Below are positions 22,717 through 27,362 of a DNA stretch of 64,000 nucleotides, piece by piece. Under the pieces are notes generated by a model, which made no database searches, was not told the origin of the DNA, and saw only the letters and a list, made by a program, of their open reading frames with translations. Numbering within the stretch: the first letter of the stretch is position 1; every line of letters begins with the position of its first letter. The position numbers were made by a program, and so were the translations under genes. The stretch is from Torpedo marmorata (taxonomy: Eukaryota), in assembly GCA_977017645.1 (NCBI GenBank), contig OZ360221.1:215884001-215948000 (forward strand), written 5' to 3'.

Positions 22717-24446
22717 CGAGGCATGTTTTTTCCCACATTTCATCTGTAATACAAATATTCATTTCTAATTCCCATTTCTGTTTTATTTCCATAGTGTTTC
22801 CTGTTACGTTATCTTGAAGCCGTCTGTATAAGTGAGCTATCAGGTTCTTCTTTATCACTCCCTCCATAGTCAGCATGAAAATCTTTTCTAGTGTAGATGG
22901 TATTTTACATATCTGCTCCCAATCTGCATGTGTCTGTAAGTAGTGCCGCACTTGAAGAAATCTAAAAAATCCATCCCTGACAAACCAAATTCTTCCTGAA
23001 GATGTTCATATGATTTCAAAGATTCCCCACAAAAAAGCTGATCCACAATAGTTAGCCCTTTATCCGCCCATTTTCTAAAGCCGTTATCTACTTTTCCAGG
23101 TAGGAATTCTGGGATAGCTACTATTTTTAATGCTCTGGGTATAGAGTTAAAAAGGTTTAGTTGTTTTCTAATAGCCAACCAAGTTTTCATTGTGAATTTA
23201 ATCCATTCATTATCTATTTTTAATTTCTTCCAATTTGCTTGGCTTAGGAATGGAAGCCCTTCCAGAGAAATACTGGGGCATGAATTTTGTTCTATACTCA
23301 CCCAACCCATTTCCATATCATTTGTTATCCATGTTATCAGGGTCCTCAGTTGTGCTGCCCACTAGTAATATTTAATGTTGTGAAAATTAAGGCCCCCTTT
23401 TTGTTTTGATAATAACAAAATCTTTAGTCTAACTCTAGGTTTTTTTATTTTGCCATACGAATCTTGATATCAATTTGTCAAGAGCTTTAAATGCTATCAT
23501 AAGAACTCCTACCGGAAAAGATTGGAATAAAAAAAGCAGTCTGGGCAAAACCTTCATTCGGACAGTTTCAATTCTACCAATTAATGATAAGGGGAGAATC
23601 TCCCATCTGAGCATATCTGCCTTTATCTCCTTCAATAACTTTCTATAATTGGCTTCATACAGTTTTAAGATGGAGGGAGTGATAGTAACACCTAGGTATC
23701 TGAAGCCCTCTCCAAACCAATGAAACCTGACCTGGTTATCTAATTGTGATGACCACGTACCCGACAGCATCATTGCTTCCGATTTTGAGTCATTCATTTT
23801 ATAACCAGATATTACTTCATATTCTTTTAAAACTTGCATCATGCGAGGCACTGAAGAAATAGGGTCGGTCACATACAGCATGACATCATCCGCAAATGGC
23901 AATATCTTATGTTCCACCCCTCTATCGTCTTTTATACCCTTTACATAACCCTCTTGCCTAATAATTTCAGCAAGTGGCTCTAAGCAGAAATCGAACAGCA
24001 TGGGACTCAAACTGTCTCCCTGCCTAACTCCACGTTTTAACCTGAAAAACCGAGAGCAACATCCATTCACCCTCACTCTTGCCCTTGGGTTTAAATATAA
24101 TACTTTCACCCAATTTATAAATTTCGGGTGAAACCCCATCTTATCTAATGTATGGTTGAGATACACCCAGTCTACTTTATCGAAAGCCTTTTGCGCATCT
24201 AAACTACCGTATATTTTGGCGTATAAGTTGACTTGCAGATAAGTCGACCCCCCTTTTTCAGCCTCATTTTAATGGTTTTATTGTATATCCGGCGTATAAG
24301 TCGACCCCCAATTTTCGGGCTGTCCGGGCCCCCCAGCAACAACCCAAAATTTGTTACAACACCCCAATCGCCAAGTAACAAAGCTGTAAATTAAGCAAGT
24401 AAGTAAAAAAAAACAGTAAAAAAAACCTTTGCTTCTGGCCGGGAAG

Positions 24447-24587
24447 ATGCCAAACGGAGCAGCTTCGGCTGCAGCCAGAGTCGGCGACGGCGACTGCATT
24501 CTCCACATCGGGTGCGATGCTGTCCGCATCGAAGAAGTCGTCTCGCTGCCCAAGTGTGCTCGGTGCAGGAACCACGGCTACGTGTCG
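24447..24587 (+). pseudogene. dmrt1: Captured 5' fragment of dmrt1 exon 1 (start of DM domain)
   Basis: ATG CCA AAC (MPN) start; TCG AAG AAG TCG TCT CG- CTG CCC AAG TGT GCT CGG TGC AGG AAC CAC GGC TAC GTG TCG = SKKSSR-LPKCARCRNHGYVS versus vertebrate DMRT1 SKKSPRLPKCARCRNHGY(A/V)S; truncated. Confidence 0.85.
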
Positions 24588-24589
24588 GC

Positions 24590-25590
24590 TCCCGGGCAGG
24601 AGCGGCGACCTAGTTCTCTCGGGCAGGAGCGGCGACCTCGTTCTCCCGGGCAGGAGCGGCGACCTCATTCTCCCGGGCAGGTGCGGCGACCTCGTTCTCC
24701 TGGGCAGGAGCGGCAACCTCGTTCTCCCGGGCAGGTGCGGCGACCTCGTTCTCCCGGCAGGAGCGGCGACCTCGTTCTCCCGGGCAAGTGTGGCGACCTC
24801 GTTCTCCCGGGCAGGTGTGGCGACCTCGTTCTCCCGGGCAGGAGCGGTGACCTCGTTCTCCCGGGCAGGTGCGGCGACCTCGTTCTCCCGGCAGGAGCGG
24901 CGACCTCATTCTCCCGGGCAGGTGCGGCAACCTCGTTCTCCCGGCAGGAGCGGCGACCTCGTTCTCCCGGGCAAGTGTGGCGACCTCGTTCTCTCGGCAG
25001 GAGCGGCGACCTCGTTCTCCCGGGCAAGTGTGGCGACCTCGTTCTCCCGGGCAGGAGCGGTAACCTCGTTCTCCCGGGAAGGTGTGGCGACCTCGTTCTC
25101 CCGGCAGGAGCGGCGACCTCGTTCTCCCGGGCAGGTGCGACGACCTCGTTCTCCCGGCAGGAGCGGCGACCTTGTTCTCCTCAGCAGAAGCGGCGACCTC
25201 GGCTTACGTGGCAGGTGCGGTGACCTCGTTCTCCCGGGCAGGTTCGGCGACCTCATTCTCCCGGGCAGGTTCGGCGACCTCATTCTCCCGGGCAGGAGTG
25301 GCGACCTCGTTCTCCTCAGCAGAAGCGACGACCTCGGCTTACATGGCAGGTGCGGTGACCTAGTTCACCCGGGCAGGTGCGGCGGCCTTGTTCTCCCGGG
25401 CAGGAGCGGCGACCTCATTCTCCTCAGCAGAAGTGGCAACCTCGGCTTACGTGGCAGGAGTGGCGACCTCGTTCTCCCAGCAGGTCGGGAACGGACTCAG
25501 ACTACGTGGCAGGAGTGGGAACCTCACCCTACCAGCCATGAGCCTCGGCTTACCGGGCAGGAGCGGCGACCTCAGGCTCCCGGGTAGGAG
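24590..25590. repeat. GC-rich 26-27-bp minisatellite (GGGCAGGAGCGGCGACCTCGTTCTCCC), roughly 35 units
   Basis: Tandem units visible, degenerating toward the right. Confidence 0.95.
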
Positions 25591-26159
25591 CGGGCATATC
25601 GGGCTCTACAATTGTAGAATGTCTGGGTGGTTTATGGTGGCACCCGGCGGTGGGGAGGTGTCAGGGAGCGGCGGCGCCGGCGGTGGGGAGGTGCTTCCAG
25701 GGTCGACCTATACACCGAATTGGTTTTTCATGGGTCGACTTATACGCCGAATCAGGTTTTCAAGGGTCGACTTATACACCGAATCGGCATGGAGTAGTTT
25801 TTGAGCTGATTTTAAGGTCTCAAAAGTATATCTGGCATATAAGTTGACCCCCGTTTTTTGAGAGATTTTTGAGGGTTTCAAGACTCGACTTATACGCCGA
25901 AATATACGGTAAGTATCATAGATGTCTGATGTTTCTTTTTTGCTCATGACGTAATGTTAAGAACACGCCTGATGTTATTGGCTCCCTGTCTACCAGGTAT
26001 AAATCCTGTTTGATCAGGGTGTATCAACTGTGTTATAAACTTTTGAATTCTCTTTGTTAGTATAGTGCTAAGTATCTTTTGATCATTATATAAAAGACTT
26101 ATCGGCCTATAACCTTTACACTTCGTGGGGTCTTTCCCATCCTTATGAATAACAGAGAT

Positions 26160-26466
26160 CAGGCTCGGCGTTATGGGGGGGGGGGCATTTGCGGACCATG
26201 CCCCCCCCAAATGAGTTATTGTGCCACCCCCACCCACCTGCAGCACTAGTGTCACTACTGTCACGTGGTTTCGTCTCCACGCGCTATAAGCATGCGCATT
26301 TGTCTGTTATGTCGGAGGGAGGGGGAAGTGTGACAGCGGCGCACGGAGGAGGTTCATGGCAGGCATGGCAACCCCCCCCCTGCTGAGTGAGTTTTCGAAT
26401 GTCAGTTTGTGCCCCCCCGTGGTTACCCTAATGCCCCCCGATTAGACTTGTCTAATGCCGACTCTG
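26160..26466. mobile_element. Non-autonomous hAT-type MITE
   Basis: 8-bp TSD ACAGAGAT/ACGGAGAT; imperfect TIR CAGGCTCGGCGTTA / TAATGCCGACTCTG; interrupts L1 'AIISV|IHKDGK'. Confidence 0.8.
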
Positions 26467-27362
26467 ACGGAGATTATAGCCTCTGCCCACGATGTAGGAG
26501 AATTTCCTTCTGATAGGACATAATTATAGACCTTAGCCAGAATCGGGGAGAGCTCCTCCCTATAACACTTGTAGAATTCTCCCAGAATCCCATCGGTTCC
26601 CGGGGACTTATTATTCTTTAGTTTATTAATAACTCCCTTTATTTCGTGTTCTTCTATACATGCTGTCATTTTTACCGCTTCTTCTTGGGAAAGGGAGGGT
26701 AGATTTAATCTAGAAAAGAACGTTCTTATCTTCCCCTCTTTGTCTATGATTTCAGGAGAGTCATATAGTTCTTCATAAAAGGATGCAAATGGTTCTGCTA
26801 TTTCTTTTGGATGTGAAACTAACTTCCTTGAGGCCGGGTGAAAGACTGGAGACCACTCGATTAGCTTGCTCTTAACGCAGCTGAAATGCCAAGAGGCGAC
26901 TAGCTCTGTTTCCCTTCTCATAACATTTTTGATTCGAAAATCTCAGGGCCCCTTCAGCTTTGTATGTCAAGAGCTCCTCTAATTTGTGTCTTTTTTGTCT
27001 TAATTCATTTAGGAGTTCTTTATTTTTATTGTTATTTTTATGGACTGACTCTAGTACCTTTATCTTACTTTCCAGGTCTGATTGCTTCTTCAATTTGTTC
27101 TTTCTTATTCTACTTGATATTTCACTCATTTTACCCCTTATTATTGCTTTAGCGGCATCCCACAAGATGGATGGTGTAACTTCACCATAATCACTGATAT
27201 CAAATTACTCTTCCATACACAGTTTAATTTCCTGAGTCAGTAAAGGGTCAGTCAATAGAGAAATGTTTGCTGTCCAATATTTAAAACAATTTTCTATTTC
27301 TAAATCCAGGCTGAGGATTATAGGGTCGTGGTCACTGATTGTTATTGAGTCTATTTTACAAT

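Follow-up and report, generated by a model that had tools for sequence, protein, structure and literature searches.

Introduction

Animal Pack-TIRs, i.e. DNA transposons carrying host-gene sequence between their terminal inverted repeats (TIRs), were surveyed in 100 reference genomes, resulting in four multicopy cases (1.4%), with an example having three copies (Tan et al. 2021, PMC8277862). Multicopy Pack-TIRs thus appear in the literature as infrequent and small in vertebrates. As described, the survey was designed to detect young cases and could overlook families of high copy number already filed as repeats, and the word 'shark' is absent from its main text. We analysed a stretch of 64,000 nucleotides from the ray Torpedo marmorata (the window; G000:C5:215.88-215.95 Mb of a 6.2-Gb assembly) harbouring a transposon of 1,703 bp filled with sequence of the gonad regulator gene dmrt1. 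We consider it highly probable that this element belongs to a set of over 8,000 dispersed non-autonomous copies originating from the 5' end of a single dmrt1, moved likely by Passer-type transposases and carrying its cargo as a neutral passenger.

The ray family resembles the animal Pack-TIRs of the survey (PMC8277862) in having host-gene sequence between TIRs, distinct target-site duplications (TSDs), GC-rich 5' cargo and copies far from the parent. The parent gene is identifiable inside the TIRs, and multiple copies have their own TSDs and distinct flanks. Unlike the surveyed cases (PMC8277862), at least 8,038 copies share one cargo, which is present in all 12 non-autonomous elements sampled. 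In their scale, the copies are comparable to bat Helitrons, described as vertebrate DNA transposons amplifying promoters, 5' untranslated regions (5'UTRs) and first exons and introns to thousands with long-lived activity (PMC4224331). The bat Helitrons are rolling-circle elements with 12,382 copies distributed over 54 genes and 16 non-genic regions (PMC4224331), whereas the ray family is of the cut-and-paste type and has amplified one gene to at least 8,038 copies. In the literature searched (mostly open-access, with supplements, Dfam and Repbase outside the scope) we found no description of a Pack-TIR family with dmrt1 cargo; the ray family is an unusually high-copy vertebrate Pack-TIR, differing in its one-gene scale and its pogo mover.

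Duplicates of dmrt1 provide a further comparison, and two of them, Xenopus dm-W and medaka dmrt1bY/dmy, are single-locus genes. Like the ray copies, dm-W (PMC9250109) and dmrt1bY/dmy (PMC2820524) are described as duplicates of dmrt1, partial or whole, in association with sequence of DNA transposons. These genes are functional sex determiners keeping a DNA-binding DM domain, whereas the ray copies are dispersed, are without the recognition helix or most of the DM domain and show no selection. The intact DM domain of a dmy/dm-W-type duplicate was not found in the family: the window copy covers positions 3-15 of the 47 positions of the Pfam DM domain and the oldest copies positions 3-43 with lesions. 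In the non-autonomous members sampled from this active family, the body of the element comes from a single captured developmental gene, at thousands of copies and with intermediates preserved. The sequence of events can therefore be read from the copies: the capture and erosion of the cargo, the growth of the minisatellite and the tracking of a changing transposase by the element ends.

Origin of the cargo from dmrt1

In a nucleotide-level comparison of the window cargo with nine DMRT loci of the host, dmrt1 is the best match with E 1.5e-53 over 271 bp, the runner-up DMRT locus reaching E 9e-6 over at most 38 bp, and the top PDB match of the cargo translation is DMRT1 (4yj0). This confirms the dmrt1 origin proposed by an earlier, sequence-only reading of this DNA. 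The parent gene (L043, C2:246.427 Mb), named by its best homologs being shark and ray dmrt1 proteins, has an entire exon 1 with a splice donor behind it. Its exon 2, 2 kb downstream, is the sole Dmrt1-domain match among 23 candidates, and the genome has a single full dmrt1. Host exon 1 is intact and its coding part conserved across sharks and rays; a two-residue loss and a V-x-S-A motif are common to the host gene and that of Narcine, suggesting that the host is likely an electric ray, and raw identity ranks Pristis above Narcine but over a shorter stretch.

From position 24321 on, the element is collinear with host positions 1222-1549, comprising about 125 bp before the ATG followed by exon 1, from which it jumps via a 6-bp microhomology into the intron-1 minisatellite (host 1702-2373). 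The host minisatellite is GC-rich, about 670 bp long with a unit of 28-30 bp, and begins 60 bp into the intron; it is 67-77% alike to that of the element, and in older copies unique intron sequence collinear with the host leads into the array. The 1,703-bp element is thus built almost wholly from dmrt1, i.e. its 5'UTR, half of exon 1 and the intron-1-derived array. The cargo seen earlier at 24447-24587 is indeed dmrt1 exon 1, but its extent is larger, reaching from the dmrt1 5' region through the intron-1 minisatellite. As the cargo contains intron sequence, genomic DNA or unspliced RNA served as template, not mRNA; the captured sequence was unspliced and likely genomic. GC-box, CCAAT and E-box-like motifs of the host, assigned by eye, sit upstream of the start of the captured stretch, suggesting that the core promoter was probably not taken.

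Within exon 1 the window copy has lost 15 nt (24459/60), 44 nt (24507/08) and 1 nt (24545/46), the 15-nt deletion being private to this copy among the copies aligned. The sequence-only reading had noted a single 1-nt break; this deletion is present, but the 44-nt deletion precedes it and the private 15-nt deletion adds to it. MPN and LPKCARCRNHGYVS are encoded in one frame and SKKSPR in the +1 frame. The last 46 nt of the exon-1 fragment are identical to the host at 45 of 46 positions, and with the 157-nt deletion that follows, the splice donor and the rear half of the DM domain are gone. As had been predicted, the fragment ends after three zinc ligands (C, C, H) and cannot encode a foldable DM domain.

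Copy number and dispersal

Exact genome matches number 733 for a 26-mer across the exon/intron junction, 8,038 for a 27-mer of the upstream cargo, a pattern that also fits the host gene, and 21,476 for a TIR 28-mer including the TA; all reversed-pattern controls gave 0. Since only 17 of 30 junction-selected copies contain the exact 27-mer, the true total may, as a rough estimate, approach 14,000, and two extrapolations (from 5/12 and 12/30) give roughly 1,800-3,200 copies with the DM fragment. Both ends were found in 25 of the 30 junction-selected copies, all 25 being flanked by TA on both sides, with 24 distinct left flanks. The copies occupy distinct TA-flanked sites on many contigs, and the family is present in all four sequencing runs from differently labelled organisms, one run possibly being the source of the assembly, with thousands of variant contigs per run and about a hundred in a small run. 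The copies thus are mobilised cargo spread to more than 8,000 places by a cut-and-paste family and not a one-off insertion, as the earlier reading had supposed; neither of the two refuting conditions named there holds.

These data bear on the possibility of an artefact of direction or assembly, according to which dmrt1 received a transposon or minisatellite insertion instead of being captured, or the copies arose by local duplication. The modest likeness of the two minisatellites and the presence of an autonomous copy close to dmrt1 exon 1 would fit such an explanation, but the coding part belongs to a dmrt1 conserved across sharks and rays, the host exon shows no TIR, in old copies the collinearity extends through unique intron into the array, and copies occur at distinct TA-flanked sites on many contigs and in independent runs. 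We regard this explanation as very improbable and already largely refuted.

That autonomous Passer-type copy lies inside the dmrt1 region (L227:8842-10000; G000:C2, about 246.467 Mb), about 40 kb from exon 1; being of a young type (94% to L144), it is probably not the capturing element. In one further copy (L124) the cargo is duplicated internally, and two pairs of loci about 67 kb apart on C1 (L190/L191 and L252/L253) have identical flanks, pointing to segmental duplication.

The autonomous partner

The sequence-only reading had called for a comparison of cargo-bearing with cargo-free members. The first 30 TIR matches represent 23 elements, 12 with dmrt1 cargo and 11 of the transposase type, and none of the 23 sampled in this way is a cargo-free non-autonomous member. 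Full-length transposase frames of 441-445 amino acids were found in 6 of 20 longer stretches, containing the domains BrkDBD, HTH_Tnp_Tc5 and DDE_1 and a DD35D catalytic spacing (counted by eye). TIRs shorter than 30 bp, a TA TSD, a length of 1.6-4 kb and a product in the range of 400-500 amino acids all agree with Passer elements, and the transposase matches include a POGK protein (35% identity), POGK being described as Passer-derived (PMC7386202). Based on these features, which match the descriptions in PMC7386202 and PMC9976928, the mover is classified as Passer-type, pogo superfamily. The Passer elements described there are autonomous (PMC7386202, PMC9976928), whereas the window element is without transposase and filled with host-gene sequence. 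The Tc1/mariner assignment made earlier was rejected in its strict sense because the Pfam matches of the partner transposase are pogo-type and pogo is set apart from Tc1/mariner (PMC7386202); the element stays within the wider IS630-Tc1-mariner group.

Three full transposase frames are 98.5-98.9% identical, suggesting recent activity. The similarity of the window element to one intact transposase element at both ends (Table 1) is consistent with Passer-type transposase elements having likely moved the dmrt1-cargo copies in trans. At another locus (L155, G000:C1:8.35 Mb) a frame of 302 amino acids, retroviral-envelope-like by eye, lies beside or within an older transposase copy.

Anatomy of the element and its insertion site

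The element interrupts an L1 reverse-transcriptase frame on the minus strand, with ...HQTSMIL on one side of the break and SLDAQKAFDKVDW on the other. A left-flank frame of 256 amino acids matches RVT_1 (E 8e-21), and both flanks contain more open stretches resembling L1 ORF2 as judged by eye. The inverted arms (24205-24231 and 25885-25911) are 93% complementary including the TA, so that the description of a 1.7-kb element with TIRs and a TA TSD inside an L1 reverse transcriptase stands. The features are compiled in Table 1. No source of the GC-rich 3' segment was found within about 60 kb around dmrt1.

Table 1. Features of the dmrt1-carrying element and its insertion site, in window coordinates
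Feature	Position	Strand	Evidence
Interrupted L1 reverse-transcriptase frame, continuing beyond the element	23438..24205	-	RVT_1 match
TA target-site duplication, left	24205..24206		Sequence ends
Non-autonomous element, 1,703 bp, 25-bp TIRs	24207..25909		TA on both sides
Left TIR, 25 bp	24207..24231	+	Exact 28-mer including TA, 21,476 genome matches
Left end common to the autonomous Passer-type element; internal TIR-like repeats	24207..24311	+	92% over the first 105 bp
Remnant of the original capture junction, equivalent to dmrt1 about 185 bp upstream of the ATG	24308..24316	+	L092-L094 and host alignment
dmrt1 upstream of the ATG, likely 5'UTR	24321..24446	+	Host L043:1222-1350; 27-mer with 8,038 exact matches
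Coding part of dmrt1 exon 1, from the ATG up to the third zinc ligand	24447..24591	+	Host alignment
Exon 1/intron 1 join at a 6-bp microhomology	24586..24591	+	157-nt deletion
GC-rich 27-bp minisatellite, main array of 33 units	24586..25606	+	From the dmrt1 intron-1 minisatellite, host L043:1702-2373
GC-rich segment, missing in the oldest copies	25607..25694	+	Copy comparison
Right end common to the autonomous element; 32-bp subterminal repeats; right TIR at 25885-25909	25695..25909	+	91.5% over the last 153 bp
TA target-site duplication, right	25910..25911		Sequence ends

About 250 bp to the right of the element, a short insertion with inverted GC-rich ends (about 26160-26470) seems to break the same L1. 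A 14-bp palindrome (25604-25617), resulting from a deletion at the 3' end of the array, resembles a DMRT site with one extra central base and is likely no site; with the patterns tried, no DMRT-type site was found in the window copy.

Deletion series and history of the family

A search with the dmrt1 part that is absent from the window copy gave five candidates, all five accounted for by the host gene and four elements. The copies form nested classes: in class I the zinc module is still open, class II has the 44-nt loss, class III, to which the window copy belongs, has the 1-nt and 157-nt losses, and in class IV the ATG leads directly to the minisatellite. The three class I copies (L092-L094; about 800-850 bp, with older ends) carry host positions 1165-1613 through the zinc-module region, beyond which 62 nt comprising the recognition helix and the splice donor are lost and unique intron continues into the array. 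All three have lesions: the first cysteine is missing in L092, a stop and a histidine-glycine change are present in L093, and L094 contains a stop and is without the ATG. The class II copy L095 has the 44-nt deletion with the GC-rich 3' segment already present. L095 itself (stretch L228, G000:C2:47.18 Mb) is without its left end and broken by a long terminal repeat retroelement of about 2.3 kb.

Of 30 loci selected for an old left end, most are without the 44 nt and pass from exon to array at an earlier point, and one shows the 1-nt deletion. Among 30 loci chosen by the upstream 27-mer, 12 belong to class III and 13 to class IV, two retain the first codons only and three were unreadable. The left ends change stepwise, those of the intermediate type, of class III and of class IV resembling three different autonomous variants. 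Class I copies differ from the host at 25/326, 31/324 and 26/328 sites, and class III copies differ from their own majority by 4.5% (28 of 30 copies, two misaligned ones being dropped). The cargo keeps the ray-ancestral residues GV, NT and SKK that are altered in the host, yet shows the host-like VPSA, suggesting that the capture likely took place on the lineage of the ray before the host-specific changes. Class IV frames in L149, L152, L153 and L158 are open over 245-646 amino acids, the repeat unit of 27 bp being divisible by three; such long repeat frames could be mis-annotated as genes.

We propose a model according to which a single capture from genomic DNA or unspliced RNA occurred in an ancestor of the ray, which may have proceeded via template switching or gap filling at a microhomology of 2 bp. 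Animal Pack-TIRs are described as having short microhomology at their breakpoints (PMC8277862); the 2 bp common to both sides of the left capture junction are too short to exceed chance, and the clear 6-bp microhomology belongs to the later internal deletion and not to the capture. Successive Passer transposases would then have re-amplified the copies repeatedly in trans, while the element ends would have been updated through recombination or co-evolution with autonomous subfamilies.

Probable neutral evolution of the cargo

We examined neutrality in 28 of 30 class III copies, setting aside variants present in more than three copies. For the ATG frame, the observed-to-expected ratio of nonsynonymous to synonymous changes comes to 0.92 (p 0.38), the other frames giving 1.38 and 0.89. 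Frameshifts relative to the majority are present in 16 of 30 class III copies, only 9 of 30 being open from the ATG to the DM fragment. Comparison of the class III frame with annotated proteins of 106-2,000 amino acids yielded 213 candidates containing 8 genuine dmrt1 proteins only, which is weak evidence against annotated protein products of the family. In the cargo, CpG transitions are about four times as frequent as other transitions, a decay consistent with germline methylation of the copies, and the element is still CpG-rich (observed/expected 1.01 compared to 0.49 for the window). Taken together, the cargo likely evolves neutrally and rides as a decaying passenger.

Several points weigh against a single capture followed by neutral amplification. 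The sampled copies are first matches on contig C1 and the samples are small, and the single origin is based on common junctions and nested indels rather than a tree. When all variants are counted, the ATG-frame ratio drops to 0.64 (p 0.003), or 0.79 in another count; we discount these values because inherited subfamily changes are counted many times, and weak past constraint on the cargo may have existed. The 44-nt and 1-nt deletions jointly restore the frame into the DM fragment, which happens by chance in one of three cases. The later classes measure 680-2,080 bp and are not shorter than class I (about 820-850 bp), so a size advantage fails to explain the dominance of copies with less dmrt1 coding sequence.

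Possible effects on dmrt1

In an alternative explanation of the same origin, the copies would act on dmrt1 in trans, silencing RNAs pairing with the dmrt1 mRNA or its CpG-rich 5' end and the host favouring lineages that shed coding sequence. Near-perfect stretches to dmrt1 persist (45/46 and 29/30 nt), the CpG decay suggests germline methylation, and the second half of the DM domain is kept in only four copies compared to thousands without it. The 44-nt piece lost early contains a match at 10 of 13 positions, compared by eye, to the DMRT1 probe site presented in PMC1931443. Against this, lower numbers would be expected of older classes in any case, the chance success of few master copies yields the same pattern, exon 1 of the host gene has stayed intact and conserved, and near-identical segments are still present in thousands of copies. 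We consider such an action in trans unlikely, and a regulatory role of the family on dmrt1 is speculative. A wider version holds that the main testis-maintenance gene of a ray became the body of an abundant family that is still active, that defence RNAs or methylation directed against the at least 8,000 copies also reach dmrt1, that the coding loss reflects host selection and that the capture of dmrtA1 by another family described below reflects special germline exposure of DMRT 5' ends; this we likewise judge improbable. Among the 18 sequencing runs listed for the family, none is recorded as RNA or as sexed. If true, the stepwise coding loss in successful lineages would record host selection against cross-fire on dmrt1.

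The probe-site match (L043:1426-1438, host exon 1; PMC1931443) falls within the 44-nt piece that every abundant class has lost and is a possible, putative autoregulatory site.

The small-RNA or methylation cross-talk on dmrt1 suggested by the sequence-only reading is so far unsupported. The same applies to its suggestion of the copies as raw material for new sex determiners: the cargo evolves neutrally, the genome has one full dmrt1, and in the sharks and the ray studied in PMC12318234 known sex-gene orthologs, dmrt1 among them, are located off the differentiated sex chromosomes. In bamboo shark, dmrt1 is described as undetected in gonadal primordia and male-biased in juveniles (PMC12318234). 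Both observations speak against dmrt1 as sex trigger and render a new sex determiner unlikely, while the family may have an effect on testis maintenance. The family allows a direct test of the long-discussed silencing spill-over from gene-carrying transposons onto their parent gene, the parent here being a conserved gonad regulator; as controls one could use related rays in which the family is absent.

A second DMRT-carrying family

A DM-domain search of the genome gave 3,772 first-look candidates compared to about 80 for each of two control families (Forkhead, 60 matches among 82 candidates; T-box, 46 among 79), and at least 87 matches among the 150 scored. In rays of this kind, such numbers will confound searches for DM domains, the use of dmrt1 probes and primers, the mapping of RNA-seq reads and repeat masking. 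A whole-genome duplication behind the extra DM matches is not supported, given one Dmrt1-domain exon and ordinary Forkhead and T-box counts.

The majority of the remaining full DM matches come from a separate family. Elements of the hAT type are recognised by 8-bp TSDs and short TIRs. The family has short TIRs and 8-bp TSDs at 12 of 14 loci (seven perfect, five with one mismatch) and is referred to as hAT-like. Its cargo of about 1 kb of dmrtA1 spans the entire DM domain and includes the splice donor with about 600 bp of intron-1 sequence; a dmrtA2 label was rejected because the homologs name dmrtA1. The carrying loci are L126-L137, L139-L141 and L232-L249, the parent being L034 (G000:C2:256.478 Mb, minus strand), and in one sub-lineage the 3' part is replaced by other sequence. 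A 27-mer at the dmrtA1 cargo boundary has 18 exact matches, and the family accounts for tens of DM matches.

The hAT-like left end has 1,352 exact matches, and dmrtA1 is present in only 1 of 30 sampled (L250-L279), these ends surrounding very diverse, often GC-rich internal sequences, including a CRAL_TRIO_N fragment in L267. No hAT transposase was found in 129 frames from 29 of the 30 sampled loci, covering about 1.5 kb inward from each left end. The family looks like a promiscuous Pack-hAT; this weakens a DMRT-specific capture, and the double capture of DMRT genes may be coincidental, given a general preference for gene starts rich in GC.

The copies with longer DM parts raise the possibility that rare old copies of the dmrt1 family, or the hAT-borne dmrtA1 copies, are kept as genes for a truncated DM protein, dm-W-like or dominant-negative. 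L092 is open from the dmrt1 ATG through the zinc module (DM 3-43, E 2e-16) into a repeat-encoded tail, the dmrtA1 copies L234, L240 and L242 keep all eight ligands (by eye), and dm-W, described as dmrt1 exons joined to a hAT-derived exon (PMC9250109), sets a precedent. The lesions of L092-L094 described above argue against this, as does their lack of the recognition helix, which is needed for high-affinity binding (PMC1931443); the dmrtA1 copies are neutral (ratio 1.01, 18 of 18 copies), and elasmobranch sex appears to be set by X dosage with other genes (PMC12318234). We hold such genes to be highly improbable, and the passenger role of the cargo remains our preferred explanation.

Further DMRT loci

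Downstream of dmrt1 on C2 lie two further DMRT genes forming a cluster with it, which we take from their sequence to be dmrt3 and dmrt2. A second three-gene DMRT cluster (L031, L038 and L055; G000:C22:158.07-158.18 Mb) is apparently paralogous to the dmrt1 cluster. A DM match covering positions 1-38 (L138, G000:C79:10.33 Mb) is not alignable to the hAT-like family. A degenerate DM frame with a stop directly after the domain lies 30 kb from dmrtA1 (L057, G000:C2:256.448 Mb), possibly representing a lost DMRT paralog.

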